Assembly: GCA_016699105.1 (NCBI GenBank)
Contig: CP064960.1
Location: 328,727-392,726 of the forward strand
Length of the DNA: 64,000 bases
Source of the DNA: a bacterium
GTDB lineage: Bacteria > Patescibacteriota > Saccharimonadia > UBA4664
Direction of reading: 5' to 3'
Shown: positions 19,574-52,435 of the stretch, in pieces
Layout: each line of letters starts with the position of its first letter
How positions within the stretch are numbered: position 1 is the stretch's first letter
Program-made: the position numbers and the translations under genes
The notes under the pieces: model-generated
Told to the model about the DNA's origin: nothing
Database searches by the model: none
What the model saw: only the letters and a program-made list of their open reading frames with translations

Positions 19574-21230
19574 ATGGCAAAGAAGATTTTTTATGATGAC
19601 GATGCCCGCGGCCGGGTACTAGCCGGGGCCAAAGAACTGTATGAGGCCGTGCGTGTAACCATGGGCCCGAAAGGCCGCAATGTGGTGGTATCCAAGAGCT
19701 ACGGTGGACGAGCGTGACTCACGATGGTGTGAGTGTGGCTAAGGCCGTGGAAATTGAAGCGCGCAATGACGAGACATTGGGTCGCGGTGTGGGTGCTGAA
19801 CTGATTAAATCGGCGGCTTCCAAGACTGCCGACAACGTCGGTGATGGTACGACGACCTCAACCGTATTGACCTACCACATCTTGGCTGAGGCCAACAAGT
19901 TGATTGCCGCCGGACACAACCCCATGGATCTCAAGAAAGGCTTAGATCAGGCCGCTGAGATAGTATTGGCTGGTGTACCTGGCATGACCGAGAAGATTGC
20001 TGGCAACCGGGCTAAGATTGCCCAGGTGGCTACTATTTCAGCTGGTGACGGTGAGATTGGTGATCTGATCGCCGAAGTTATTGAAGCTGTAGGTGAAGAC
20101 GGTACGGTGACTGTTGAGCAATCGCAAGGTTTGGCTCTAGAAAAGGAAGTTGTCGAAGGATTCAAGATCGATCGGGGATACGTTAGCCAATATATGGTGA
20201 CCGATCCTGCTCGCATGGAAGCTGTCTACGAGAAGCCCATGATCCTGGTAACCGACAAAAAAATTGGTGGTATCCAAGAGATTTTGCCACTGCTCGAGAA
20301 AATGGCTCAGGGTGGTAAGAAAGACCTGGTCATCGTAGCTGAAGATGTGGAAGGTGAAGCATTGGCCACTTTGGTACTCAACAAGCTCAAGGGTGTATTC
20401 AACACCTTGGCTATTAAGGCGCCGGCTTTTGGTGACCGTCGCAAAGCTATCTTGCAAGATATCGCCGAGCTGACGGGTGCAACGGTGATTACTTAAGAGC
20501 AAGGCTATACCTTCGAAAACGCTACCTTGGCCATGCTAGGTAGTGCCCGCAAGGTGATTGCTGGTAAAGACGACACCACTATTATTGAAGGTTATGGTGA
20601 CGCCAAGAGCGTGACAGCCCGGATTGCAGAAATTCGCGCCCAGATCGACAATGCAACCAGCGAGTATGACAAAGAAAACCTAGAGAAGCGCCTGAGCGCC
20701 TTGGCCGGCAAAGTAGCCGTCATCAAGGTCGGTGGTGCCACCGAGACTGAAATCAACGAAAGAAAGACCGCGTCGATGACGCTGTAGCCGCTACCAAGGC
20801 AGCTGTAGCTGAAGGTATCGTGCCTGGCGGCGGTGTGACTCTGGTAGACCTGAGCAAGAAGCTGACGGTTGAGCCAACCAAGATTGGTTCCAGCGCCGAA
20901 GCTGGTCACTTGGTGCTCAAGCGCGCCTTGGTGCAGCCTTTCCGTGAACTCATGCGCAACGCTGGTTTTAACCCGGACGAGAAGCTACCGGCCGTATTGG
21001 CTGCCAAGACCGGGGGACAGGGCTTTGACGTAACGGCTGCCGGTGCGTTGGTTGACCTCAAGGCCAAAGGAATTGTCGACCCAGCCAAGGTGGTACGTGA
21101 AGCCGTGCAGAACGCGGTATCGATCGCCGGTACTGCCATGACCATGGGTGCGCTCATTGTAGACATCCCCGAAGAGAAGAGTGCTGCCGGTGGTGGTATG
21201 CCGGGTGGTATGGGTGGTATGGACTATTAA
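19574..21230 (+). CDS. groEL: chaperonin GroEL, at least three apparent frameshifts
   Basis: Starts '[38 protein letters not shown]'. Four collinear ORF pieces end in a 'GGMGGMDY' tail. Confidence 0.85.
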
Positions 21231-21377
21231 GTAAGTAATATAGGCTGCGCGAACAGCCATGCTCGATTGCCTTGCGAAACTCACTGAAGTTCGAACATTC
21301 TCAGGCTTCTCCAGCATAACTGTTCGCTAGCCGTCGCTTACTGCCCACGTTCGTAAAAGTAAAAATGTGCAGGTATT

Positions 21378-21410
21378 AAAAGAGGCCCCTGGTGGAGTGG
21401 GCCTCTTTTA
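21378..21410 (+). terminator. groEL terminator
   Basis: AAAGAGGCCC-CTGGTGGAGT-GGGCCTCTTTTAT hairpin followed by T-run. Confidence 0.6.
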
Positions 21411-21444
21411 TAATTGATTATTTATGTTTATTGTGACATAAGTG

Positions 21445-21473
21445 TTGACAATTGTAACTACTTATGCTATTAT
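21445..21473 (+). promoter_or_regulatory. consensus sigma70-type promoter for the high-GC module
   Basis: TTGACA (21445-21450), 17-nt spacer, TATTAT (21468-21473), in an AT-rich stretch ~105 nt upstream of the ATG at 21578. Confidence 0.55.
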
Positions 21474-21577
21474 GTCTGACATGCTCGTTTGGTGCTCATG
21501 AAGATTCGTCTTCCTCTGATCATTAAACCGGCGTACCCCGACATCACGCAAGTTCACACACGAACAGGAGTCCGACC

Positions 21578-22711
21578 ATGACTGCTCAGACCACCACCCA
21601 GCCCACCAACACGTCGACCGACGCCGAGGTGGCGCAGGAGGTCCAGGAGCCCACGGCGGCTCCCAAGGACTTCTTCGCTCCGCCGCTGGCGGCTCACGAG
21701 GGCCTCGCTGCTCTGGTCGACCAGCTCAACAACGTCGGCGCCGAGATGGCGCCCGAGGCGACCCAGAAGCCCGACCCGCACGCGCAGCTCAAGCTGCGTC
21801 GTGAGACGTACTGGGCCAAGCTCCGTGAGGAGCAGGGCCTGGCCGACGATGTCATGCCCGACTTCGATGCAGTGATGTTCCAGCCCGCCAAGGGCCGGGA
21901 ATCCATCCACCTGGTCGAGAAGGACATCGACGCGTTGAAGACCATGAAGCTGACCGGCAACATCGCCGGGCGGCTGAAGTGGCTGCTCGACCGCCTGCTG
22001 GTGGACGAGAGGGTCGGCAAGCCGGCCGGACCCAAGTCCGGTGCGACCAAGGCTCCGGCCAAGGCCACCAAGTTGCAGTACCCCGTCGTGCCCCCCATCT
22101 CTTCCGAGTGGGACAAGGAGCGCCGGGACTTCTACCGACAGGTGGTCCGCGCGTGGGACTGGAAGACCTGCGAGTCGTTCCAGGCCAACTTCGCCCGCCA
22201 GAAGGGTCTCCCCCAGGAGATCTGGTTCATGCTCAATTTCAAGAAGTGTGGCCAGTTCATCGAGGCGGTTCTGCGCCAGGCTCTGGTTCTCGCGCTCGTC
22301 GAGCGCGAGCGGCAGGCCGGCAAGGAGGACGAGTACCTCGCCCTTGCCGCCGGCATCGAGGGGGCTCGCGCCTCCGAGGCTGCCAAGCTGGCGGAATTGG
22401 CCGACTGCGGCCGGGTCGTCGACCCGACCAAGACGGTCAACCCTGTCCACCGAGTCGAGGTCACCGCTGACCGCACTCCGGAGGAGATCGAGCAGGAGCG
22501 CATTGCCTTCTGGTCGAGCGTGCCGCGCGAGCTCCGCGAGGAGTTCAAGGCACGCGCTGCCAAGGACTTCGCCGCCGCCATGCTGGTGGTGCGCAAGCCC
22601 AAGAAGGTGTACACCCCCGAGCGGATCCAGGAGATGGTCTCGGCCATCTCCGTCGCGGAGCGTCTGCTCCGCGTGATCCAGCGTGAGCACGCTCAGGCCG
22701 ACCAGGCCTAA
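21578..22711 (+). CDS. hypothetical protein encoded in ~68% GC DNA (foreign-type composition)
   Basis: 377 aa with an AGGAG RBS 8 nt upstream. Codon usage has a high-GC third position, unlike its neighbours. No recognisable domain. Confidence 0.6.
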   Translation: MTAQTTTQPTNTSTDAEVAQEVQEPTAAPKDFFAPPLAAHEGLAALVDQLNNVGAEMAPEATQKPDPHAQLKLRRETYWAKLREEQGLADDVMPDFDAVMFQPAKGRESIHLVEKDIDALKTMKLTGNIAGRLKWLLDRLLVDERVGKPAGPKSGATKAPAKATKLQYPVVPPISSEWDKERRDFYRQVVRAWDWKTCESFQANFARQKGLPQEIWFMLNFKKCGQFIEAVLRQALVLALVERERQAGKEDEYLALAAGIEGARASEAAKLAELADCGRVVDPTKTVNPVHRVEVTADRTPEEIEQERIAFWSSVPRELREEFKARAAKDFAAAMLVVRKPKKVYTPERIQEMVSAISVAERLLRVIQREHAQADQA

Positions 22712-22728
22712 GCGTCTCACCGCACTGC

Positions 22729-22778
22729 GGGGAGGAGTGGAAGGCTTACATGCCCCCACTCCTCCCCAACCCGATTTT
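22729..22778 (+). terminator. Rho-independent terminator
   Basis: GGGGAGGAGTGG...CCACTCCTCCCC stem then AACCCGATTTT. Confidence 0.55.
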
Positions 22779-22897
22779 AGAACTTGCGTGATGTCTCTCA
22801 CCTGAATTTTCAAAGGAAACTTTGAAGATTGAGGCGAGATTGGCAGATCCGATCTCGAGGTTCATCGAAAAATCCATCCCCGTCAGAGGAGTAACGC

Positions 22898-23185
22898 ATG
22901 ACCACGTATGTGACCGAGCGGCTCGTCAGTATCGAAGAGCGGCTCGGACGAGCCACCCGAGTGATCGGGCGACCGCAGGTCGTGGCGACGCGCGAGCAGG
23001 TGCTCGCGGATCGTGCCGTCTACATGGCGGGGCGTCCGTTGTCCAATGTCTGGTTGGCCGCCGGCCGCCAGCAGATCAGGCCGTCGGAAGCGCAGGAACA
23101 CCTGCTCACCGCTTCCGCCGGCCAGCTCGACCTCGACCAGATCGGGGAGCTGTACAAGCTCCTGGGCAAGGTGGTCCGCGGCTGA
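22898..23185 (+). CDS. small hypothetical protein encoded in high-GC DNA
   Basis: 95 aa with GAGGAG RBS. Same composition as 21578-22711. Confidence 0.5.
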   Translation: MTTYVTERLVSIEERLGRATRVIGRPQVVATREQVLADRAVYMAGRPLSNVWLAAGRQQIRPSEAQEHLLTASAGQLDLDQIGELYKLLGKVVRG

Positions 23186-23210
23186 CAGAGCCGCTGATTC
23201 ACCAACACCC

Positions 23211-23252
23211 CCGGGGAGGGGCGGTTTCGACCGCCTCTCCCCATCTTCTTTT
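23211..23252 (+). terminator. Rho-independent terminator
   Basis: GGGGAGGGGCGG-TTTCGA-CCGCCTCTCCCC then ATCTTCTTTTAT. Confidence 0.65.
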
Positions 23253-23275
23253 ATACATGTGGTACGCTTAGTACT

Positions 23276-24109
23276 ATGAAAACGCTTGCGGTTAATACTA
23301 CGAGATTGGCTGAAGAAACGTGGCGGCAGCGAGTCGATCAGACTCCAGCCCAGCCGGATGAATTTGCGCGTTTGGCGTTGGCAATCGTTGAATCAATTGA
23401 GCAACATCGTGATGAGCATGGTTTAAACGAGGCTATCAGCCAGGCTAAAGAAGATTTAGTTGATGCGTTGACCAATCAGGAACTCAAACATTTTGGCGAA
23501 GTGGTCGTGGGCGCACGACGCCAGGCCAAGTTGCAGGAATGGTTGGATGCCGACCGTGATAAATTGCACAGTGGACAGCTTGATCATCAAGAGCGGGTGA
23601 GTGTCGGCCATCAGTATGAGGCTTTGCGGCATGAAGCGTGCGAGTACAATCATCATTTGCGCAGTGTAATCGAACTTTCGGGACATCATTTTGACCGTGA
23701 GGACTTAACGAATTGGCTCGTGGACGTCAGCCAGGGCCGGCATGAATGGGCGGTAGCCGAGATCCAGGGTGCGGTCAGTGAAGTGGCGCTTCACGCAGCC
23801 CTACAAGGTGTGCCCGAACTTGCAGGTGTGCGCTATGGCAGTGTGGCCGAAGATCTAGCCGGTTATGATTTTATCGCTGAATTGAATGGTAAATTACTGA
23901 CAGTTGATGCTAAAACCGGCAAATATTGGCCGTTGGATGAACGCAAGCACGGGCACCGGCACCTGGAAGTGAGTGTGCCCCACGAGGCTGTTAATGGTTT
24001 TTGGATCAAACGACCGGCGATGGAACGACTACGCACCGAAATCCGGCAGGCCTTGCAGATACCGCATCATGTCGAACACACTTGGCGATTGACGCCAGTA
24101 CAAGCATAA
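23276..24109 (+). CDS. hypothetical protein (possible C-terminal PD-(D/E)xK-like motif)
   Basis: 277 aa at host-like GC. 'GYDFIAELNGKLLTVDAKTGKY' could be a D...DxK nuclease core, but this is weak evidence. Confidence 0.45.
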   Translation: MKTLAVNTTRLAEETWRQRVDQTPAQPDEFARLALAIVESIEQHRDEHGLNEAISQAKEDLVDALTNQELKHFGEVVVGARRQAKLQEWLDADRDKLHSGQLDHQERVSVGHQYEALRHEACEYNHHLRSVIELSGHHFDREDLTNWLVDVSQGRHEWAVAEIQGAVSEVALHAALQGVPELAGVRYGSVAEDLAGYDFIAELNGKLLTVDAKTGKYWPLDERKHGHRHLEVSVPHEAVNGFWIKRPAMERLRTEIRQALQIPHHVEHTWRLTPVQA

Positions 24110-42164: not shown

Positions 42165-44492
42165 ATGAGCGAACAGGTAGGGGTAGAGCAGGGGGTTGGC
42201 CTAGCGGGGGATAGTTCCGTTTGGGCAAATTCTATGCGTGAGCTTGATCAGCCTGAGACGGCACCAAATGAGCCGAGCTCCCGTGAGCAGGCGCAGCCAG
42301 TGGTTGACCAGTTTAAGCAACTTGAGCACGATTTTTGTGAGGCGTCCAAAATCATTCGTGCTGAGGAGCTGTTGGAGGGCCACTATGAAGATAGCGACGA
42401 ACCATCGGTAGAGTTAATCGCACATCGACGTGAGGCATTGATGGCAGAAATGGGACGCTTGCGCCAAGCATGCCAGGCTGATCATCCCTTAATTGCTTTA
42501 CGGGCAGAATACCTTACAGTTTGCCTATATGGTCGTATCGATCACAGCTATACCGATGATCGCTTACTCGATGATGATCTACGGCAAGAATTTGATTCGT
42601 ATCGTGACAAGTACGGCAATGGCTATTTTGATGATCAGCCAGAGTCGCTGGATGAGGACGAGAGCCAGAGTTTCAATCTACCCTTTGTTGACGTTTCGGG
42701 TAAAGTAGTCCTACCAGAGCAAGTATACGAGATGGCCAAGAAAGATCGCCCAAGTTTCGTAGGCGTTAAAGCGTTTCAGGTAGCCCGAGATGGAGTAGTA
42801 TTCCTGGCCGAATCGTTGCCGAGAGGTGGCTATGATGCCGTGAACGTGGTGGCGGAGGCCAGGTTAGATGCGCAGCAATTAGACCAAGCCGAAACGGTAA
42901 AACTGCAGCCTTCGCAGTTAGCGCGTTTTGAGTCTGTAGTGCAGCATGGTCGTCTCGATGTTTTGCGCGAATTACTCCAATGGGGGCCAGAGTTCTTGGA
43001 GAAGGGACACATACCATGGCAAAGCCAAGATCGACAAACTGCTACAGAACGGCGTCGTTACTGGGAAGAGCGGATACCAACATTAGATAGTGCTGAGTGG
43101 CGGCTCGTGTATGAGTCAACTGCGGATAGACAATATGATGAGGACAAACCTGTGTCCGTGGATGATTTCCTGCGTGAGGCATCGCTCGGCGAATATCTGA
43201 CTGAGTTAGGGATTGATTCGGGCAAGGCAAACCAGATGCAGGATCAAATGACAACGTATTTGCGCCAGGTACATCAACAACAAAACAAAGAGTTGGCGCC
43301 GGTGTTTGAGGTACATGCCCTTGATACTTCCAATGATACAACGATGCTCTGGCGTGATTTCTTTTTAGAGCCGGGAATGCAAGAAGCGTTGAGTAAACAG
43401 TTTGAACTCGATATGACCTCGATGTCTTTGGCTGCGCAACGACAGCTCGTGGCTTATCTGGGGCGCAGCACAATTGTGGAATTTAACCGGCTTAAACAGA
43501 TAGTTTCTGGGCGGGATGACGAATCAAAGCTTAGCTTGTTTGAATCGTTTTTAGCTTTAGAGCATGGTGACGAGTTTGGTGATAGCCTACTGACGATTGT
43601 CGAGCAATTACCAGAGGAAACATCGCAAGAAATCCTGAGCGAATTGGCAAATATTCGCCAATTGGCACATGAAAACGGTCAAGAATACCACGATTTTGAC
43701 CCTGAGTTTGCACAGCAATTTGAGCAAGCTTGGGTGTCGCGAACAACGCAGGTATTGTTGAATGCCCAAGAACTAGCCGAGGGGCGCACCCCGAGCGTTA
43801 CTAGGTATGATGGAACAGTCAAAACTATTAGCTCGATCGGTGAGGTAACCTGGGGATTACGATTGCTTAGGGACCGGCTGAGCCGGGAGCTGAGTCATTT
43901 ACGCGATGGTGGTGGCGTGATTGAGCGCCAAGACAGTACAACTACTACTATTCGAATGCCTGATGGTGGGTTGGAGCAATTGCGGCCGTATGCCGCTGAG
44001 CAAGATCAGCACGATGAAGAGCATCATTTTGATGATGAGGCACGCGCTAACTCATTGGCCAGTACTGATAGCTGGCCATTTACAGAATCTCGGAATGACC
44101 CCGCCAGAGTTCGGGCGTTAAGTATTCGGATTGATCGTGAGGGTATCTGGAGAAATGAGGCAGGCGAACCGCTGCGGGATCGTCAAAACAAACTCGTAAA
44201 CTTGCCGACAGGCGAGTATGGCTGGGTCTCATTAGATATTGGTGGATTGGTGGGTGAACCGGATGATCCCAATGTGCGTATTGGGGCGTTGATGGCAGCA
44301 GGGGCTGCTATATTTGCCAATCGTCGGGGTCAGGTTTCTCATCAGCATCATGTGAGAGAGGTGTTTGCTGAGCGCTTTGGTCGGAAAGAGGAGTTTGCGC
44401 GCTTGGTTCGCTTTCGGCAGGAGAGGTTGCTGCGACAGATATCGAAGACTGTTTCGCGCCCCGCTTCATCAGAGCAAAAACTTGCCTCATAG
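42165..44492 (+). CDS. large acidic hypothetical protein (775 aa)
   Basis: No recognisable motifs; strongly acidic. Confidence 0.5.
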   Translation: MSEQVGVEQGVGLAGDSSVWANSMRELDQPETAPNEPSSREQAQPVVDQFKQLEHDFCEASKIIRAEELLEGHYEDSDEPSVELIAHRREALMAEMGRLRQACQADHPLIALRAEYLTVCLYGRIDHSYTDDRLLDDDLRQEFDSYRDKYGNGYFDDQPESLDEDESQSFNLPFVDVSGKVVLPEQVYEMAKKDRPSFVGVKAFQVARDGVVFLAESLPRGGYDAVNVVAEARLDAQQLDQAETVKLQPSQLARFESVVQHGRLDVLRELLQWGPEFLEKGHIPWQSQDRQTATERRRYWEERIPTLDSAEWRLVYESTADRQYDEDKPVSVDDFLREASLGEYLTELGIDSGKANQMQDQMTTYLRQVHQQQNKELAPVFEVHALDTSNDTTMLWRDFFLEPGMQEALSKQFELDMTSMSLAAQRQLVAYLGRSTIVEFNRLKQIVSGRDDESKLSLFESFLALEHGDEFGDSLLTIVEQLPEETSQEILSELANIRQLAHENGQEYHDFDPEFAQQFEQAWVSRTTQVLLNAQELAEGRTPSVTRYDGTVKTISSIGEVTWGLRLLRDRLSRELSHLRDGGGVIERQDSTTTTIRMPDGGLEQLRPYAAEQDQHDEEHHFDDEARANSLASTDSWPFTESRNDPARVRALSIRIDREGIWRNEAGEPLRDRQNKLVNLPTGEYGWVSLDIGGLVGEPDDPNVRIGALMAAGAAIFANRRGQVSHQHHVREVFAERFGRKEEFARLVRFRQERLLRQISKTVSRPASSEQKLAS

Positions 44493-45194: not shown

Positions 45195-46055
45195 AGGTGT
45201 AAGTTAGCACAAGCGGGATAAATTGTCAATGAGAAATTGACAGAAAATGGTTTGTTTTTATATCTGTTAGAATGTAATACGCGAGTGACTAATTGACATA
45301 TTAAAGTCCTTGTGGTAAAGTGTGTTCATTCGATGAGGCAGACATAAAATACCTACTCTCGAAAGTCAAGCTAACAATTACATACGTACACATTTGGTAA
45401 GACACGTTCTAGGGTCAGAAGCTCGAAAACGGTCCAAATATAGGTTGAGCCCTTGGGTGTTCCCTGTATCTGGATCGCGAGCGTGTCTTTCTATCGTTTT
45501 AAGGGCAGTTTTAGGACCTTTAAAACCACTAATTGAGATGATCTAGAACTCGGTTAGTACCCGCGAAGGTGCATCTAGTAACGGGTAACAGACGATTAAT
45601 GGACTATTCCTTGGTCCGTCGCACCAAGTACGCGCTTTGTAGCGAGATATCCGCGTGATGATCAGAAGGCATCATGAATGCAGGTTGGCGAAACTATTTG
45701 TTCGCCCGTCACGCGCTATCTCTCTGGAAAGAGAGAAATTTAAAAATCGATCACAAATTTTTGAGCGGAAGCTGCCTCTCGTAATCAATAGTCCCACGCC
45801 AACATGAATACCTGCGCGATCGGATGTACTAGAAGGAATACGGGAGACAGGTTCCACTGAAGGAACCAGTATTTGGGCGAAAGTCCAAAAAAGTACCTTT
45901 TGAAAAGTTGTTTGAATATGGTCGCTGGTCGGCGTTGCGGAAACGTATACGATGGTGTTTTCCCAAGGGGTATCGATGAGAATCGACGCTCGCTGGGGAG
46001 ACGCCAACGGGGCGGATCCAACAATGGGGCAGATGTGCTCCGGAAGGAGGTGGTC

Positions 46056-46463
46056 TTCGTGATCACCCAGACGACCGAGACCACGACCCCGACCGCCCCG
46101 GTGACAGGGCGGCTGGTTCCGCGGCCGCCCGCGGGCCGCAAGGGGGTCGTCAACCCCCGGACCCACGCGGCCACCCGCGAGGCGGCGCTGCTGGACCAAC
46201 TGGCGGCCGAGCTGACCGCCCACCAGGCGGAGGCCGCCGAGGCGGCGACCCGGCAGGGTTTGATCCTGCCACCCGTCGGCCGGGTCATTGACCCGGCCAC
46301 CCTCCGCGAGGAGGGTCTGCCCGAGATCGTGGGGCAGACCCGGACGGTGCAGTCGGCACGGCCTGCGACGCCGCGGCGTCAACCGATGATGCCCCGTAAC
46401 GGGGGGCGTCGCTACAATGGCCCGCTTACGCGGGCCGAGCTGGCGGCAAGGGTCGCCAGCTGA
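46056..46463 (+). CDS. Thr/Pro/Arg-rich hypothetical protein in the high-GC island
   Basis: GGAAGGAGG then GTG start. ~135 aa at ~70% GC. Confidence 0.4.
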   Translation, partial: FVITQTTETTTPTAPVTGRLVPRPPAGRKGVVNPRTHAATREAALLDQLAAELTAHQAEAAEAATRQGLILPPVGRVIDPATLREEGLPEIVGQTRTVQSARPATPRRQPMMPRNGGRRYNGPLTRAELAARVAS

Positions 46464-46764
46464 CAACCAGCCGCAGGTGAGGCAGCTGCGGGATATAAAT
46501 TCCTGCCTCAACGTTCGAGCCGGGTTGACGGCTATGAGCGGGCCAGCGCGAAAGCGCCCGACCGCATCACCATGGGTTGTTTTGACCCAGATCGTTTGAA
46601 CATTTTGTTCACAAGTTCGTTTGTGCCCGCCGAGAGCTTTTCTCGGTAGTACCACAAGGAAATCGTTTCGCGACTTTTTTCGAAAATCGCTGAACGATGT
46701 GGTGCGCCACACTTGTACATTTTTGTACGAATCGGGGAGGTCGGCCAACCGGCCGCTACCTCCC

Positions 46765-46819
46765 CCTGACTTCCGTGGATGCGTATCTGCGTTGATGAGT
46801 CCGAAAGGACGAAAAGTCA
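46765..46819 (+). ncRNA. type-III hammerhead ribozyme motif, copy 1 (C3U variant)
   Basis: Helix III CUGACU/AGUCAG, cleavage triplet UUC, helix I hairpin CGUGGAU-GCGU-AUCUGCG, core 'UUGAUGA' (U at position 3 instead of C), helix II GUCC-GAAA-GGAC, then GAAA. Confidence 0.5.
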
Positions 46820-46934
46820 GACCAGTACTTTGATTAGTGATAGATGTTCCGGACTGGATATTTGTTATTGAGATACACCGATGACAGGTATCCGGTCCGG
46901 GAAGCGCCCAGACCACAAATCCCCTGGAGGGGTC

Positions 46935-47174
46935 ATGCTTTGGAAGACCACGTATCAGGAATCACCGTATGAGAGTACGGGACAGTATGGAGTGTATGTT
47001 TGGCACCGGTTTTTCGGCCGGTGCCAAACAGGATGGCAGGTGGTGCCAATCGCCTGCCATCCTGATGGCGAAAAAAGAATGGATGCCTTTTTGGCTTTCA
47101 TTCGCCAACCGCGGCGGTTCGCCGCGGTGGAAAGGAGGGCAAAAGAGTTGGGCTTCAGACTTGACAAGGTCTAA
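46935..47174 (+). CDS. small hypothetical protein (79 aa) after conserved leader
   Basis: 'CCCCUGGAGGGGUCAUGC' leader/RBS conserved downstream of all three hammerheads. Confidence 0.35.
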   Translation: MLWKTTYQESPYESTGQYGVYVWHRFFGRCQTGWQVVPIACHPDGEKRMDAFLAFIRQPRRFAAVERRAKELGFRLDKV

Positions 47175-47224
47175 CTCTGGCCGCTGATCTGTCGGCTTCA
47201 GGTCAAACGCTGCGCCGAGGGGTG

Positions 47225-47420
47225 TTCAAATCCTCGGAAGTACCAAAGGAACTCAGGTTTAGAACCCGAGTGGTGCGAGACGGGTAACCGGGAGCAACCC
47301 ATAATATGCTCCCCACTCAACCCGAGTGTTTCATATCTTCTGCGTTCCTACCGCCGATTACCGCGTAATCGGCGGGTGAGAGGGGTGATGAAACACTCAG
47401 GCTGGGTGAAAGCTCAGAAA
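47225..47420 (+). repeat. repeat B copy 1 (diverged)
   Basis: Shares 'GCTCCCCAC..AACCCGAG...TTCA.A.CTTCTGC.TTC', 'GTGAGAGGGGT' and 'TCAGGCTGGG' with copies at ~50072 and ~52217. Contains an 11-bp perfect hairpin CCGCCGATTAC-CGC-GTAATCGGCGG (47352-47376). Confidence 0.5.
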
Positions 47421-47496
47421 TGTACCTTCAGTACTAAGTTCACGCGGATGGTCCGCGTGGTGCGTACATGCGCATGGATCACCCTTAGGAGGTGAA

Positions 47497-48423
47497 ATGA
47501 CTGCGTATATGGCATTGGATCCTCGTCCGGCGGCTCGACAGACAATGCTCGAGCTTCTCTCCACCCCGACCTTTGGGGTGGAGGTGACGGTGCCCGAGCT
47601 GGGGTCGGCGTGCCTTCTGGGCAATGCTGACCCCCAGCACACCGGGGGGCGGGCAGATATGTCAGCCATCGAGGGCCTTGCCGCGTTGTTTCGCGGTGAG
47701 GCACAGGTAGCCACCGTGCTGCCTGACCTCGATAGCCTTGGTTCCATGGCGGTGCTGGACATCGCCATGGACGCCATTGCCCAGCTCGGTGCGTTGGCAG
47801 GAGAGATCCTGCGGCGCATCGAGCTAATCGGCCGTGCTGATCGCTTCGAGAGAGGCGAATGGCCCGGTCGGCGACCCCTGCCGACCCTCGACCAGCCGTG
47901 GTCGGACGTGCTTTCGGGCGCGTCAGACACACGCGAGCTTGCGGCCATGGGGGCCGTTGTCGCGGACCACCGGCTGCCGGTGGAGGAGCGGGTGCGTTTG
48001 CTGCGCATCTGGCTCTCCACCGGCGAGGAGCCGTTGGAGTATCGCCAGCGAGTTGAGGCTGAACGGGCCGAGATGCTGGCTGCCCTGACGGGTGGCGAGA
48101 TCTTGGTTCGCGAGGCTGCCAAGGGCCATATCGCCACGGTGGTTTCAACCCACCGGGCTGGCATGGCCATTGGCTACCACCGGGCTCCGGTGGTAGTGGC
48201 GCAGAACCCGGCTTTTAGTTTTAAGGGTTCGGCGCCGGTCGTTAAGTTCACGATAGCCCAGTTCAGAGTGGGTTACGTGGATCTGTCGGCCGCTCTGACT
48301 GAGCTGGCCGGACGTGAGCCCGGCTGGGGCGGATCGCCAACGATTGGCGGCTCACCCCAGGGGGTCTCGTCGGGCTTGTCGCTCGACGAGGTTGTAGCGG
48401 TCGTGGAGGCTCATCTCCTCTGA
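47497..48423 (+). CDS. hypothetical protein (308 aa) in the high-GC island
   Basis: AGGAGGTGA RBS with 8-nt spacing; no recognisable domain. Confidence 0.5.
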   Translation: MTAYMALDPRPAARQTMLELLSTPTFGVEVTVPELGSACLLGNADPQHTGGRADMSAIEGLAALFRGEAQVATVLPDLDSLGSMAVLDIAMDAIAQLGALAGEILRRIELIGRADRFERGEWPGRRPLPTLDQPWSDVLSGASDTRELAAMGAVVADHRLPVEERVRLLRIWLSTGEEPLEYRQRVEAERAEMLAALTGGEILVREAAKGHIATVVSTHRAGMAIGYHRAPVVVAQNPAFSFKGSAPVVKFTIAQFRVGYVDLSAALTELAGREPGWGGSPTIGGSPQGVSSGLSLDEVVAVVEAHLL

Positions 48424-48456
48424 CTGCGCCCATTCGAATCGAGCCTTCGGAAGGAG

Positions 48457-48648
48457 GTGAAAGAAATGAGAGGGCCACTGTTCGTGATCGCCCTGGGGGC
48501 CGCTATGGCGACCTTCGGGTGGTGGGTAGAAAGGAAGCATCAGGCGGCGGTGGGGCCGGTTGATCCGGCTTGCGCTCTGATGCTCCTGGGAGGGGTTATA
48601 GCTTTTCTTGGCGCTGCTGCCTTTGGGGCAGCGGTCGTCAGTGGGTGA
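48457..48648 (+). CDS. small two-TM membrane protein (63 aa)
   Basis: AGGAGGTGA RBS; two hydrophobic helices. Confidence 0.4.
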   Translation: MKEMRGPLFVIALGAAMATFGWWVERKHQAAVGPVDPACALMLLGGVIAFLGAAAFGAAVVSG

Positions 48649-48733
48649 GCACTGCCTTCCAACCCCAACTGCACCGGCAGTCATCCGGGACAAGGCGCTC
48701 AAAAGGAAATTGGCCAACAGTGCCAATGCGCGC

Positions 48734-48890
48734 CAGGGAGCGACTCCTCAAGACGCTGAACCACGGTTAATACCCGTTGGTCACTGTCATCGCGACAACA
48801 ACAGGTTTGCCGGTTTCCTCCGCAAGGAAATAACCGGTGCAACTCGGCGGATGTGTATCCGCCCTGACGAGTCCGAAAGGACGAAAGTTG
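48734..48890 (+). ncRNA. ~157-nt structured repeat A, copy 2, ending in a canonical type-III hammerhead ribozyme (48839-48890)
   Basis: Helix III GCAAC/GUUG(G), cleavage after CUC (C48845), helix I GGCGGAU-GUGU-AUCCGCC, core CUGACGA, helix II GUCC-GAAA-GGAC, GAAA. Upstream ~100 nt is near-identical to copy 3. Confidence 0.65.
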
Positions 48891-49028
48891 GCTGTTCTTT
48901 AAAGAGATTCCTCGATATTCGGTTGGTTCTGAGAGTAATTGCCAGGTCGGATATTCGCTATTGCGTGGAGCGATGGCAGATATCCGGTCTGGGGGAATAG
49001 CTCAGGCTACGAGATCCTTGGAGGGGTC

Positions 49029-49493
49029 ATGCGAGTTTTTCGAGAGTTCCGTGTTCGTGCCGGAAGCACGTTAGAGACGGATGGGGTGCGATTCGACGCC
49101 CCTGGACCTTGGGGATGGAGCACCCAGATCCCGTATCCGCGCGGTGGACGTGCCGCGGGTGTGGGGTTAGTGGAAAGTCCAAGTACTTTCCACGGCGAGA
49201 GCCTTGGTTGGCTGTGCAGCGAGAAATCGCTGCGTCTCGGTGCAAGATTTGCACCGAGCTTGACCACAACCCAGCCTTTACCAGGCTGGAAGGATCGGCT
49301 GGCCGAGCTGAGGGGGCTCGAGCAGACAATGCTGGACGCTCTGGTAGCGCTGCTCAGCTGCGAACGGCCCGTAGACCTGCGGGTTGAGTCCCTTGAGCGG
49401 GCGGGGCTGCTCGTGGTGGGGGCGGTATCGTGCTCACGAAGCACGAGCCGGATATCGCCCGACGATTGGGCCTACTGTTCCGTAAGGAGGTAA
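49029..49493 (+). CDS. hypothetical protein (155 aa) after conserved leader
   Basis: The 'CCUUGGAGGGGUCAUGC' leader is the only support. Length is uncertain given assembly indels. Confidence 0.35.
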   Translation: MRVFREFRVRAGSTLETDGVRFDAPGPWGWSTQIPYPRGGRAAGVGLVESPSTFHGESLGWLCSEKSLRLGARFAPSLTTTQPLPGWKDRLAELRGLEQTMLDALVALLSCERPVDLRVESLERAGLLVVGAVSCSRSTSRISPDDWAYCSVRR

Positions 49494-49795
49494 TTGAAGT
49501 TGTCTCCTGCGTCGAGGAGCACGCAATCGGGGGGTACCTCAAGGTCCTCTGCCGAAGGTCGCGGGCCCAGGGGTGCCCTCATACGGTTGGTCTGTTTACT
49601 CAGACGGACCAGAGGGGGCTTACTCCCTCCTCGGTAAGGAGGATTACTTCCCAGGAGCAATCAGGAGCTGGGACAGTCTCCTGAAGCAGTTTGCTCAAAT
49701 CGTGGAGGGCCGCGCATCCGCAGCGACGACATCTGTCGGCTGAGGCGCGAACTCAACGAGCCTTTGAAAGGAGGTGGAACGAATCGGTCCACCAA

Positions 49796-50229
49796 TGCTG
49801 TTTCTTGGCACGGTGATGGCTGTGCGGGCTGTCTGGGCTCTATGTAGTGGAAGCTACAAGGGTAAGCCAGCCCGGCGGGGATCGCCAATATGGTATCCAT
49901 TGTGGTTTGCGCTTGCCGCAAGCGTGAGCGTTGCCGTGATGGGGCCATATTTATCGGCTCCGAATGATTCGGGCCCACCGTCAGACGGCTTCTGGCAAAA
50001 CCCGCCCTCTGATCGCGGATCGAAAAGATCAGAACTGCCACATAAGGACTTCGCGAACGCGGAGGTGGCGCAAAACGTATTTACGGTAAAGGGGAGTCGC
50101 CTAAGAGCTCCCCACCCAACCCGAGGGCTTCACACCTTCTGCATTCCGACAACTCATTTGAGCAATCGGAGGGTGGTCGGAGTGGTGGAGCTCTCAGGCT
50201 GGGCGCCAATCAGGTTCCCAGTAGTTTGA
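49796..50229 (+). CDS. small hydrophobic hypothetical protein (extent uncertain)
   Basis: GAAAGGAGGTGG RBS. The N-terminal two-TM segment resembles the 48457 ORF. The 3' part may be out of frame. Confidence 0.3.
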
Positions 50230-50250
50230 AACACCCGTGAGAGGGGTAAG
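50072..50250 (+). repeat. repeat B copy 2
   Basis: 'GGTGGCGCAAAACGTATTTACGGTAAAGGGGAGTCGCCTAAGAGCTCCCCACCCAACCCGAGGGCTTCACACCTTCTGCATTCCGAC...' shows ~90% identity over ~85 nt to copy 3. Includes the GGGGAG-N11-CTCCCC hairpin. Confidence 0.55.
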
Positions 50251-50252
50251 CG

Positions 50253-50537
50253 ATGAACGTCGTCTTCGGTACCGTGAAATTCGTCAACGCCGAACGAGGG
50301 TTTGGCTTCGTCCGTCTCGATGGGGGCGCCGGAGATGTCCACTTCTGGCTCGATCGCGGATTTACCTCCGCAGTGGGCTGGCGGGCGGACCCAATGGGTG
50401 CCATGCGAAGCGGTGAAAACTTTGGTCGGCTGGAAATCGTTCGACCGGCGACACCAAAGCCTGGCGAACGTCTGGCCCTGAGTATTATCTGCCGGAACCG
50501 CACAGACTCGCCGCGGTCAGACCCAAGCGAAAGCTAA
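50253..50537 (+). CDS. cold-shock-domain-like small protein (degenerate CSD)
   Basis: 'GTVKFVNAERGFGFV' resembles the CspA RNP1 motif 'GTVKWFNAEKGFGFI'. The rest diverges. Confidence 0.4.
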   Translation: MNVVFGTVKFVNAERGFGFVRLDGGAGDVHFWLDRGFTSAVGWRADPMGAMRSGENFGRLEIVRPATPKPGERLALSIICRNRTDSPRSDPSES

Positions 50538-50563
50538 GGGCCCGACTGCCGAGTGGTGGGCGT

Positions 50564-51322
50564 TTGAAGTGCCCTGGAAGGCGGCGCAGGCCGAAATCGA
50601 AGCCCGAAAAGAGCAGTACCCGGTTGGTCTGTATTACTGGCCGATCGAGTATGGAGACGGACGCGCTGCACGTGTCATACCGGTGCCCAGGGAGCACGAA
50701 ACGTATACGAGCCACTACGATTACGGCCGTGTACCTGCTCACTGGGCGGTGGTGGAGCGTGCAGGGAGTTACCGCACGAGTCGTTTGCCCGTGGGATGGT
50801 TCCGGCGGATTGGGACACTTATTTGTCGCCGGGCTTGCTCGAGCGTTTCTCGATTGTTCGGGGCGAGCTGAGTATGTGGCTGCCCTGCGATCCGAACTGA
50901 CTGACCTAGAGGATCGTGTTGTGGTTGCCGAGCGCGCGTCGGGTCCGAAGAGGGCGAAGCCAAAATTGCGGCTGGATGGCGTCGGAAACGGCGAGATCCA
51001 CTACATGGGGGTAAGCCTTCAAGTGACAGGTTTTCGTATCACAACGGGCAAGAAGGAAGGCTTCAGTTGGCCTGGCGACCCTGACGACCCAGAGTACACC
51101 GAGGTCACCTATAGCATCGAGCTGGGTGGCCATGAAGTCTCGGCCCTACCAGGTCCGGTGGTGGTGTTGGCGAGAGCCGCCGAGAAGAAGGAAGACGTGC
51201 GTGATAGCTGGGATATCTTGATATCTGAGCTCAGCCGGGGAGTACAACACGACCTTAGCTGGATGAGAAAGCGAGTTGTTGCGATTCACGCCGAGATCGA
51301 ACGCCAGGAGGCCTCAGAGTAG
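50564..51322 (+). CDS. hypothetical protein (frame ambiguous; alternative ORF 50569-50871)
   Basis: Two overlapping long ORFs in different frames. High GC makes ORF calls unreliable. Confidence 0.3.
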   Translation: MKCPGRRRRPKSKPEKSSTRLVCITGRSSMETDALHVSYRCPGSTKRIRATTITAVYLLTGRWWSVQGVTARVVCPWDGSGGLGHLFVAGLARAFLDCSGRAEYVAALRSELTDLEDRVVVAERASGPKRAKPKLRLDGVGNGEIHYMGVSLQVTGFRITTGKKEGFSWPGDPDDPEYTEVTYSIELGGHEVSALPGPVVVLARAAEKKEDVRDSWDILISELSRGVQHDLSWMRKRVVAIHAEIERQEASE

Positions 51323-51370
51323 GAATTCTGGGACAAAACGCGCATAAGGACCAGCTCGTGAGCTGGGCGT

Positions 51371-51528
51371 CAGGGGAGCGACTCCTCAAGACGTTGAACC
51401 ACGGTTAATACCCGTTGGTCACTGTCATCGTGACAACCAAAGGTTTGCCGGTTTCCGCCGCAAGGAAATAACCGGTGCAACTCGGCGGATGTGTATCCGC
51501 CCTGACGAGTCCGAAAGGACGAAAGTTG
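51371..51528 (+). ncRNA. ~158-nt structured repeat A, copy 3, ending in a canonical type-III hammerhead ribozyme (51477-51528)
   Basis: Hammerhead core identical to copy 2. 8 substitutions over ~157 nt between the copies. Confidence 0.65.
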
Positions 51529-51577
51529 TCAGCCAGTTGGTCCGGGAAACGCCCAGACCACGAGGCCCTGGAGGGTC

Positions 51578-51811
51578 ATGCTGCAGCTGGTTTCGATTCA
51601 TTGGGGTCCGCTCGACGAGCCCCACGAGGACGTCATCATTCACGATGGAGTCCCGGCGCGGCGACTTGCCGTGCCGAACTACTACGATGAAGGGCAGACG
51701 GTCGAGGAGTCGATCTTCTGCCCGAGCACAAGGTGGGCAGCAAGTTACATCGCTGCCCTCGTGGCGCGGGGCTATCCCGGCCGGAGCCACATGGCACGGA
51801 TCTTGAGATGA
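51578..51811 (+). CDS. small hypothetical protein (77 aa) after conserved leader
   Basis: The 'CCCUGGAGGGUCAUGC' leader is the only support. Confidence 0.35.
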   Translation: MLQLVSIHWGPLDEPHEDVIIHDGVPARRLAVPNYYDEGQTVEESIFCPSTRWAASYIAALVARGYPGRSHMARILR

Positions 51812-51912
51812 GGGCGTTTGGCCGCGCGCTGCCGAATTCTGACCGAGCGTCCCCAGTTAGGATAACTGCCAAACTCCTGATCTCGCAATTCGATTTTAAG
51901 GAGGGATGGGAA

Positions 51913-52044
51913 ATGTTTCTGACTGGACAGCCTGATGACTGTGGCTGCCCGGTTAGAGCAGGAGGTAGTCTCGGCCAGGATGAGCGAAACTGGAGCTTCG
52001 AGTGCCATCTTTGCGGAGCAAGTGGTGTCGCGTACGGGTTTTAG
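51913..52044 (+). CDS. Cys-rich small protein (43 aa, CxC...CxxC zinc-ribbon-like)
   Basis: AAGGAGGGA RBS 6 nt upstream; 'DCGCPV...ECHLCG'. Confidence 0.35.
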   Translation: MFLTGQPDDCGCPVRAGGSLGQDERNWSFECHLCGASGVAYGF

Positions 52045-52216
52045 ATATCCGTATGACGCCCAGGCTTTTCTGGAGACCCATCCCGAGGCTCAGCGAATGT
52101 AGTAGAGCTGGCCGCACCAGGAATCCGGCTGCACTACCTCCCGGAGGTGCAGTACCAGACCAATACGCCGGAAAGCGTTGAATTTTCCGGAAGTGCCAAA
52201 GGAACCCGTCAAGGAA

Positions 52217-52360
52217 TGGGTGGCGCAAAATCGTTCTACGGTAAAGGGAGTCGCCTAAGAGCTCCCACCTAACCCGAAGGCTTCATACCTTCTGCATTCT
52301 GACTGCTTTATGAAATATCAGCGAGCAGTTGGAGTGATGGAGCCTTCAGGTTTGGTTGAC
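52217..52360 (+). repeat. repeat B copy 3 at right edge of the high-GC island
   Basis: Near-identical to copy 2 over ~85 nt. GC drops to host level immediately downstream. Confidence 0.55.
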
Positions 52361-52435
52361 CAAAATCAGATTGATTGTTCGCAGCCAAAATTGATACTAT
52401 TGGCGAACTTGTAACTACGACAATATCTACTTAAG

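Follow-up and report, generated by a model that had tools for sequence, protein, structure and literature searches.

A hammerhead-punctuated island of orphan genes with a repeated leader, start site and candidate RNA element in a Saccharimonadia genome

The DNA stretch analyzed here, hereafter the window, comprises 64,000 nucleotides (nt) from a bacterium of the lineage UBA4664 (Patescibacteriota; Saccharimonadia), i.e., positions 328,727 to 392,726 of the forward strand of contig CP064960.1 (assembly GCA_016699105.1). It contains a GC-rich island of ~6.5 kb, at about 45.9-52.4 kb, between a gene for a TrmB-type regulator and purF, in which three hammerhead ribozyme motifs stand ahead of open reading frames (ORFs) that share one leader and start site. 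From its 5' side, the island reads o201; hammerhead 1 (HH1), leader 1 (L1), ORF1 and the RNA element X1; o308 and o60; HH2, L2, ORF2, an ORF of 57 amino acids (aa) and X2; o358; HH3, L3, ORF3 and X3; and then purF. The plan of the unit is the same in all three cases: a stable hairpin, a type III hammerhead, a structured leader, a strong Shine-Dalgarno (SD)/AUG, one or more orphan ORFs and an RNA of ~200 nt that we call X. The flanks encode DnaG, sigma-70 (rpoD), the TrmB regulator, PurF, ZnuA, ABC transporter proteins and PolA. Searches of the island proteins against PHROGs returned zero matches, and the region is no recognizable prophage.

Short-read contigs of sister strains (L029-L039, from ENA, NCBI and Logan) were recovered via the exact protein of ORF1 and share roughly 93-96% nucleotide identity with the window (93% for the two full-length island contigs). 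L030 and L033 are Illumina-assembled sister contigs, and L030 served as the intact reference for ORF lengths. Nearly all indels between the window and the short-read assemblies consist of one base lost from a G/C homopolymer in the window (within 46000-52400, e.g., at 48991, 49099, 49279, 49420, 49545, 50479, 50691, 51572 and 51778), which is the typical pattern of long-read consensus error. Because of these errors, ORF2, the 358-aa gene and ORF3 are fragmented and two RNA motifs are altered in the window. Thus, a single gene of 358 aa underlies the fragments of 94, 100 and 252 aa at 50.25-51.3 kb, and a frameshift makes the 57-aa ORF run into X2.

The initial annotation had reported that one start context recurs downstream of each hammerhead, and the recurrence was confirmed. 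The 16-mer CCTGGAGGGGTCATGC is exact at 46923-46938, the second copy carries one mismatch and the third is one G short. This missing G is a long-read homopolymer error, because the Illumina sister assemblies L030 and L033 read CCCTGGAGGGGTCATGC, identical to leader 1. The string TGGAGGGGTCATGC occurs exactly once per hammerhead-led unit and zero times elsewhere in the window or the 52 fetched loci, and the chance expectation for the 16-mer in the window, allowing up to three mismatches, is 0.55 matches. In copy 1, a 2-nt UC follows the G-run and the GGAGG core lies 4 nt from the AUG. Similarity runs well past the SD in all three leaders, over a common block of ~45 nt made up of a GGUCYGGG/CYCAGRCY hairpin, ACRAR, a pyrimidine tract and UGGAGGGGUCAUGC, and it ends 1-2 nt past the ATG. 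A failure to align past the SD was one condition that the initial annotation had set for its own refutation, and the leaders escape it. Within-window BLAST aligned L1 with L3 at 87% identity over 46 nt (E = 4e-7) and L1 with L2 at 74% identity over 85 nt (E = 1.5e-6). The conserved hairpin that had been assigned to two of the three copies, GGTCCGGGAA.CGCCCAGACCAC, does precede copies 1 and 3; copy 2 has in its place a diverged homologue, GGTCTGGGAATAGCTCAGGCTAC, in which all pairs are kept through G.U. We conclude that the shared leader and start site are real and non-random.

Beyond this block, leaders 1 and 2 carry a long hairpin that unit 3 does not have. The 3' base of the long hairpin and the downstream hairpin (hairpin 2) both use GGUCYGG, so these folds are mutually exclusive. 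The long hairpin and hairpin 2 are each 94-97% paired and the SD hairpin 91%, vs 34-53% when the 3' partners are slid as a control. Where substitutions separate the two L2 alleles, stems and SD-AUG are left intact or U.G becomes C-G.

HH1 to HH3 all lie on the + strand, 2.07 and 2.64 kb apart, with cores at 46792-46814, 48864-48886 and 51502-51524 that read TTGATGAGTCCGAAAGGACGAAA in the first and CTGACGAGTCCGAAAGGACGAAA in the other two; no further hammerheads were found in the window. Each has a stem I hairpin, a stem II of the form GUCC-GAAA-GGAC, an open stem III of 5-7 bp, an A15.1-U16.1 pair and C17. The consensus catalytic core (C3 U4 G5 A6 N7 G8 A9...G12 A13 A14) is complete in HH2 and HH3 (CUGACGAG...CGAAA); HH1 departs from it by U3 instead of C3, a change fixed in 11/11 strain contigs. 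Type III hammerheads cut 5' of the ribozyme body. The downstream mRNA would therefore begin with the ~47-nt ribozyme body, the start context would follow 94-183 nt beyond it, and the predicted distance from cut to AUG is 161, 181 and 95 nt in units 1, 2 and 3, respectively. Stable hairpins analogous to the one that abuts HH1 also abut HH2 and HH3, and the last hairpin before each hammerhead holds CCUCC or CCGCC, an anti-SD-like tract. HH2 and HH3, together with the multi-hairpin regions that precede them, form a direct repeat of 165 nt (48727-48890 and 51364-51528; 95-97% identical) whose copies flank a 2.6-kb segment.

The initial annotation did not connect X, the conserved 3' element of the module, to the leader units. 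X is always found 3' of a gene, and in three related genomes it lies directly 5' of purF; copies outside the window occur at L040 1377-1597, L047 30-118 and L031 9736-9944. Its structure was built from error-free copies plus one copy from another organism, and the statistics refer to 5 sequences. The fold comprises a hairpin a, a UGCCA/UGGCG helix around a small hairpin, a hairpin b and a long hairpin c of ~95 nt with the invariant asymmetric bulge AYCUUCUG; X also has an AAGGAA internal loop. Over 60 pairs, 90% of the cells are paired vs 39-50% with slid partners. Covariation is significant: both sides have changed in 17/60 pairs, a value reached by 0/500 shuffles (8.1 +/- 1.9), with slid partners giving 1-5. 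Almost all wobble pairs are G.U on the sense strand, and covariance model R1 scores X at 150-204 bits on the + strand vs 15-23 bits on the - strand, which argues that X is an RNA in gene orientation. X and the leader were compared with 4227 Rfam covariance models with no credible match for either, even at E<=10 on short segments, and BLAST against phage records yielded no match for X or for the pre-HH3/HH3/L3 segment. X is a well-supported candidate for a new RNA family linked to self-cleaving ribozymes.

The cargo of the units is unrelated from one unit to the next. ORF1, ORF2 and ORF3 show no pairwise similarity at the protein level, as initially annotated, and the length of 79 aa given for ORF1 was right; the other two had been read as small through the homopolymer errors and truly have 238/239 and 175 aa. 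The cargo proteins had no match in Pfam, PHROGs, PADLOC or NCBIfam. ORF3 has zero homologues among 5.8 billion proteins, the search with ORF1 matched ORF1 itself alone, and that with ORF2 matched just its own other allele. This second ORF2 allele separates the window and L031 from L030 and L033 by a DNA difference of 29%, with 61% aa identity and a ratio of nonsynonymous to synonymous substitution rates (dN/dS) of 0.41; both alleles keep the CxxC...CxxC pattern and the identical N-terminus MRVFREFRVR. This supports ORF2 as a real gene under purifying selection that starts at the leader ATG, since the N-terminus is identical in the alleles and gene callers on independent assemblies put all three ORF starts there. 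ORF1 and ORF3 have the base composition of coding sequence when it is broken down by codon position.

Comparison between strains showed a mosaic of identities from region to region. In L031 vs L030, identity is 93-97% in pre-HH2 and HH2 and 88-93% in the leader; it reaches 95-100% over hairpin 2, the SD and the ~10 initial codons, falls to 55-70% in the ORF2 body, is back to 100% sharply at the ORF2 stop, stays high through X2 and drops again just 3' of its long hairpin. Pre-HH3, HH3, L3 and ORF3 are entirely absent from L031, which carries o349, a 46%-identical allele of the 358-aa gene, and which retains after it, 5' of purF, a full-length but diverged X (92.7 bits). When L031 9310-9860 is aligned with window 50889-52269, this diverged X combines a diverged 5' domain with a long hairpin c that is 98% identical; after ...C, identity is regained exactly at TAACCCGAAGG, where the long hairpin of X3 has its 5' base. 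The HH1-L1-ORF1-X1 block shows 100% identity across all strains, with flanking genes at 89-92%. The short-read assemblies L027, L028, L032 and L037 are interrupted within the 165-nt repeat of pre-hammerhead region and hammerhead and within X. The three paralogous units are 74-87% alike in their RNA parts and dissimilar in their ORFs; RNA ends and cargo therefore have separate histories, i.e., a cassette-like modularity.

A fourth unit occurs in a different organism. Scanning metagenomes with the most invariant stretch of X gave 13 matches, three of which are true X homologues: L040, L047 and L051 (partial, at a contig end). In L047, as in the window, hairpin c lies directly 5' of purF. A complete unit is present in L040 (OCTA010059626.1), with hammerhead, leader, an unrelated ORF of 373 aa, X and an intrinsic terminator, past which GC drops from 0.62 to 0.53 into host-like genes. 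Its hammerhead is of type III (Rfam 33.7 bits, E = 9e-5, below the RF00008 gathering threshold of 48.5 bits). The long hairpin of its leader opens with the same CAGGUCGGAUA as L2, and its GGUUUGGGAGAC...AGACUACGAUG block aligns with hairpin 2, which is only partly kept. L040 does not have the CCUGGAGGGGUCAUGC context, which makes the exact 16-nt start context lineage-specific; the plan of hammerhead, long hairpin and distal X is conserved between organisms, as it is present in L040. The proposal of a fixed leader with variable cargo has thus fared well, given the unrelated proteins, the ORF2 allele swap, the presence or absence of unit 3 and the fourth unit in L040. Pattern scans for the leader, a search that the initial annotation had suggested as a way to more cassettes, gave 0 matches in the JGI metagenomes and, in IMG/VR, one chance match (L020) that lies inside a coding region with no hammerhead. 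The leader is accordingly not widespread in these two collections.

Placing a hammerhead just before a gene is a common layout. Phage contigs L006, L011 and L018 of IMG/VR carry unrelated type III hammerheads directly after tRNA-like 3' ends (GGTTCAAACCC...), and other IMG/VR phage hammerheads lie 20-60 nt upstream of ORF starts. A generic hammerhead core scan of IMG/VR retrieved 19 unrelated phage or viroid-like hammerheads, with the leader or X in none of them. A hammerhead plus stem I pattern matched two unrelated Pseudomonadota loci (L025 and L026) among GTDB genomes, a collection that does not include the window; X and the leader are absent from both.

Table 1. Positions of the RNA elements, reading frames and promoter-like site of the island (window coordinates)
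Feature	Position	Strand	Description
Sigma70-like promoter match	45293..45321	+	TTGACA-17-TAAAGT, TG-extended; only good + strand match; weak evidence
Hairpin 5' of HH1	46734..46765	+	GGGGAGG...CCUCCCC, read from sequence; abuts HH1
HH1, type III hammerhead-like	46766..46820	+	Core UUGAUGAG (C3 to U); predicted cut 46773/46774
Leader 1 long hairpin	46849..46900	+	22 bp; 3' base overlaps 5' strand of hairpin 2
Leader 1 hairpin 2	46894..46914	+	GGUCCGGG AAGCG CCCAGACC; repeat family D12
Start context copy 1 with mini-hairpin	46921..46938	+	CCCC/GGGG mini-hairpin; SD GGAGGGG 46926-46932; AUG 46935, then C
ORF1	46935..47174	+	79 aa, orphan; same ORF called in NCBI, ENA and Logan assemblies
X1	47212..47411	+	~200-nt multi-helix RNA closing unit 1; covariance model R1 154 bits
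Pre-HH2 conserved region	48727..48837	+	Part of the 165-nt direct repeat; terminal hairpin abuts HH2
HH2, canonical type III hammerhead	48838..48892	+	Rfam 40.5 bits, E = 3.7e-6; predicted cut 48845/48846
Leader 2 long hairpin	48942..48992	+	Homologue of the leader 1 long hairpin; pairing kept in strain variants
Leader 2 hairpin 2	48986..49008	+	Two spurious extra Gs in the window; true sequence GGUCUGGGAAUAGCUCAGGCU
Start context copy 2	49017..49032	+	CTTGGAGGGGTCATGC, one mismatch; SD 49020-49026; AUG 49029
ORF2	49029..49743	+	True length 238/239 aa, zinc-ribbon-like CxxC...CxxC; 154-, 84- and 56-aa pieces in the window
Small ORF between ORF2 and X2	49795..49970 (3' end approximate)	+	57 aa in L030; two hydrophobic segments
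X2	50006..50208	+	Covariance model R1 204 bits
Pre-HH3 conserved region	51364..51475	+	Other copy of the 165-nt direct repeat
HH3, canonical type III hammerhead	51476..51530	+	Rfam 43.3 bits, E = 6.3e-7; predicted cut 51483/51484
Leader 3 hairpin 2	51539..51559	+	Repeat family D12; starts 14 nt after the core-terminal GAAA (51524)
Start context copy 3	about 51567-51581	+	CCTGGAGGGTCATGC, one G short in the window; AUG 51578
ORF3	51578..52102	+	True length 175 aa (L030 14658-15185); 77 aa in the window through frameshifts
X3	52165..52362	+	Covariance model R1 184 bits; island right edge, directly 5' of purF

Other genes of the island lie between the hammerhead-led units. The 358/349-aa protein (window 50253-51322; L030 13323-14399; L031 8697-9746), whose alleles are only 46% identical, has an N-terminal segment of ~30 aa resembling a cold-shock domain (KGFGF-type RNP1) and a long C-terminal remainder with no assignment. 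The 308-aa protein (window 47497-48423) belongs to a large uncharacterized family with >490 homologues, many of them from Patescibacteria, which also account for most of the named ones. Its confident AlphaFold model (predicted local distance difference test score of 92) found only distant matches to DHH/DHHA1 phosphoesterases (RecJ, nanoRNase and PggH, the last a pGpG phosphodiesterase), with template modeling (TM) scores of 0.3-0.4; the invariant DPQH, DxD, D and H residues would fit a metal-dependent nuclease or phosphodiesterase. Loci L021-L024, which carry genes of this family, have no hammerheads and no X, so the RNA elements are not tied to it. At L021 3786-4721, a homologue 71% identical to the 308-aa protein, with a GC of 0.68 vs 0.45-0.50 in its flanks, stands beside a TrmB gene; the 308-aa gene may itself be horizontally acquired cargo. 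Two small ORFs, of 60 aa (48467-48648; L030 11533-11715) after the 308-aa gene and of 57 aa (~49795-49970; L030 12864-13037) after ORF2, encode two hydrophobic segments each and have their own GGAGGTG SD.

The surroundings of the island also vary between strains. An AT-rich, ORF-free gap of 660 nt (45200-45870) from the TrmB gene to the island is 95-100% conserved, with a single divergent patch at about 45719-45759. Gene content just 5' of the TrmB gene differs (window 42165-44492 vs L030 5244-7529): one ORF of 775 aa in the window, L031 and L032, and a minus-strand ORF of 340 aa plus an ORF of 371 aa in L030, L034 and L035, which makes this locus a second variable spot adjoining the island. 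Elsewhere in the window, 20000-24000 is a second GC-rich stretch (0.55-0.60) that shares no repeats with the island; at 21554-22813 it has overlapping long ORFs on both strands with no Pfam match, beside a truncated Cpn60-like ORF.

The explanation that we favor, and to which we give about an even chance, is that the island is transcribed as one long RNA, which its structured RNA elements divide into gene-length messages with insulator-like 5' ends. Co-transcription would proceed from the promoter-like site at 45293-45321, which sits in the AT-rich gap 5' of the island and is a candidate start of one long transcript; no terminator-like sites were found between the units. In vivo, each hammerhead would cut at its own 5' edge, leaving an upstream message that ends in a hairpin with a 2',3'-cyclic phosphate and a downstream message that starts with a 5'-OH and a compact ribozyme fold followed by the leader hairpin(s). 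These 5' elements would have a stabilizing or insulating role, in that the SD GGAGGGG, whose GGAGG core lies 4 nt before the AUG, would be presented in the same local context whatever is upstream. X would close the unit on the 3' side, where its candidate roles include 3' stabilizer, nuclease site or something more elaborate. Since conservation is seen in the RNA parts but not in the ORFs, the former could also act as homology patches through which cargo would be exchanged between strains and between units.

Several observations weigh against this division of one transcript by ribozymes. HH2 and HH3, at 40.5 and 43.3 bits, score below the RF00008 gathering threshold, and HH1 gets no Rfam match even at E<=10. 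Natural hammerhead core variants exist and usually cleave more slowly (PMC7151607); together with the fixed C3-to-U change, this makes HH1 cleavage doubtful, and unit 1 may be cut slowly or not at all. Covariation in the leader, for which 3-4 sequences were available, is not significant (129/500 and 268/500 shuffles reach it). Accessibility of the SD/AUG, predicted by partition function, shows no consistent change between cleaved and uncleaved contexts; the predictions do not support a cleavage-dependent unmasking of the SD. Shuffled sequence gives promoter and terminator counts that are just as good, and the invariance of the HH1-L1-ORF1-X1 block tells nothing about selection. Finally, to judge from L040, hairpin 2 and the exact 16-nt start context could be of recent origin and not a functional requirement.

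Two alternatives concern the leaders. These may simply be leftovers of a duplicated hammerhead segment, perhaps kept alike by gene conversion, that serve for nothing more than an ordinary strong SD and behind which the ORFs were replaced. The near identity of pre-HH2/HH2 and pre-HH3/HH3 over 165 nt does indicate recent duplication or conversion, and the nonsignificant leader covariation, the lack of the exact context in L040 and an SD and spacing like those of other island genes (GGAGGTGAAATG before o308) all agree with it. Duplication of a whole unit followed by neutral decay is nevertheless unfitting for RNA parts 74-87% alike beside wholly unrelated ORFs, and it accommodates poorly both the recurrence of the long hairpin and the GGUYYGGGA...AGACYAC block in a different organism and the L2 allele substitutions that respect the stems and the SD-AUG; we consider it unlikely, if the most serious of the alternatives. 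Somewhat less probable still is a leader that acts as a regulatory switch or operator, in which GGUCYGG would pair upstream, in the long hairpin, or downstream, in hairpin 2, and a protein, small RNA or ligand would co-regulate the three cargo genes. The nucleotides shared by the two folds, each ~94-97% compatible with all copies, invite such a reading, as do the SD, predicted to be partly paired (unpaired probability 0.2-0.5), with its conserved upstream CCC(C/U) tract, and the cold-shock-like RNA-binding segment at the N-terminus of an island protein. Unit 3, however, has no long hairpin and hence no switch, no known riboswitch matched, the covariation is again not significant and no regulator was identified.

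The cassette-like behavior proposed in the initial annotation holds as modularity between strains; in the integron sense it does not. Were the units integron-type mobile DNA cassettes, X would be an attC-like recombination hairpin with hammerhead and leader as passengers. The X long hairpin does begin with an RYYYAAC-like box (ACTCAAC, ACCCAAC, ACCTAAC), the ORFs are all co-oriented, and in L031, which lacks unit 3, identity is regained right where the long hairpin of X3 has its 5' base. The 3' box of X1 and X2, however, is GCTGGGT or GCTGGGC and not the R' consensus GTTRRRY, no integrase or recombinase lies within +/-10 kb in L030 (precomputed Pfam, 20 kb), Pfam searches matched none of the island ORFs, and X, ~200 nt with five helices, is not a single attC hairpin; its sense-strand G.U wobbles and strand-specific scores indicate RNA. 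Moreover, L031 keeps a full diverged X, so the junction is a boundary between divergent and conserved domains and not an insertion scar. The attC reading of X was ruled out on its sequence boxes, strand bias and lack of an integrase, and we hold integron cassettes to be the least probable account of the units. Hardly more credible is the possibility that cleavage from hammerhead to hammerhead frees RNAs of 2.1 and 2.6 kb, which end in 5'-OH and 2',3'-cyclic phosphate and are ligated into circles, as in retrozymes or viroid-like elements. It draws on the three co-oriented hammerheads of viroid/satellite-style type III (stem I loop GGAUGUGUAUCC, stem II GUCCGAAAGGAC) and on the ribozyme-bearing direct repeats around 2.6 kb, which recall the long terminal repeats of retrozymes (PMC4918200). 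Against it, circular or spliced products of clustered bacterial hammerheads were sought by Perreault et al. and not found (PMC3088659), genes for a reverse transcriptase or a ligase are missing from the island, HH1 has a variant core and the segments hold ordinary SD-led ORFs.

Returning to processing of one long RNA, a bolder version, which we regard as a rather improbable proposal, would make hammerhead-leader-ORF-X a self-contained, exchangeable expression cassette at the RNA level. The released message would have hammerhead and X as its two functional ends, X would represent a new functional RNA class (e.g., a second processing ribozyme, a ligation/circularization partner or a specific nuclease/chaperone site), and through these constant ends bacteria with small genomes could try out orphan genes, some of them perhaps new. 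Together with the repeated anatomy of the locus, the natural variants, i.e., swapped alleles, a unit that is missing, a ribozyme with a variant core and a second organism, make the idea of processing and insulation directly testable.

Clustered bacterial hammerheads have been known since 2011 to surround variable genes in prophage-like regions, and tandem triples cleave ~2-kb polycistronic transcripts in vitro (PMC3088659). As in that system, several co-oriented hammerheads flank single genes or short blocks of varying identity in the island, and the role proposed there is likewise the processing of a long transcript into gene-length mRNAs. The island differs in having no prophage or integrase neighborhood, in its host, probably a CPR-like bacterium with a small genome (apparently 1.3 Mb), and in hammerheads that are coupled to a conserved leader/start site within units closed by X, neither of which was described there; leader plus start site, and X, are what is new here, and they give the clusters a defined, repeated anatomy. 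PeSL cassettes of T4-type phages (PMC2839356, PMC4122927) are similar in that short regulatory repeats flank orphan genes in hypervariable regions and serve as recombination patches; those repeats are promoter and terminator stem-loops acting at the level of transcription and DNA, whereas the repeats of the island are ribozymes and structured RNAs within one putative transcript. Integron cassettes resemble the units in that their ORFs share one orientation, seem to have no promoters of their own, are each succeeded by an imperfect hairpin repeat and are present or absent between strains. They differ from the island, which has no integrase, does not meet R' GTTRRRY, carries X as a five-helix sense RNA and places a ribozyme and a leader before the ORF.

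For X, the closest parallels are the RNAs called drum, DUF3800-I, FuFi-1 or skipping-rope (Weinberg et al. 2017, PMC5737381), which are likewise complex, well conserved and located outside 5' untranslated regions (UTRs). Terminator-followed RNAs of that study are like the X of L040, with its intrinsic terminator; the X copies of the window are followed by genes instead. Unlike those RNAs, X is tied to hammerhead-led ORFs and matches no Rfam model. The drum motif was also entertained as ribozyme-associated, a link that the main text of PMC5737381 does not confirm, and it is kept as a loose analogy. In RNA viruses of fungi and plants, hammerheads within 5' UTRs are needed for translation initiation (bioRxiv 10.1101/2024.05.16.594327). 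There too a self-cleaving ribozyme stands upstream of an ORF and its cleavage is tied to downstream translation, but those systems are eukaryotic, cap-independent and based on type I hammerheads, whereas the island is bacterial and SD-dependent.

The layout is matched architecturally by RiboJ, the sTRSV (tobacco ringspot virus satellite RNA) type III hammerhead plus a 23-nt hairpin placed upstream of a ribosome binding site (RBS) (PMC8794103). In RiboJ, as proposed for the island, a type III hammerhead strips upstream RNA, and ribozyme body and hairpin give the RBS a constant context; stem and loop sequences are of similar style and the cargo is interchangeable. This order of hammerhead, hairpin(s), RBS and interchangeable ORF is found in units 1-3 and in L040, although the match is one of architecture only. 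The island is natural and not engineered, and its leaders, at 94-183 nt, are longer and carry one or two additional hairpins. If ribozyme-led messages are indeed released from one transcript, the island would be a natural counterpart of the synthetic RiboJ insulator and would explain uniform expression of hypervariable orphan genes from that transcript.

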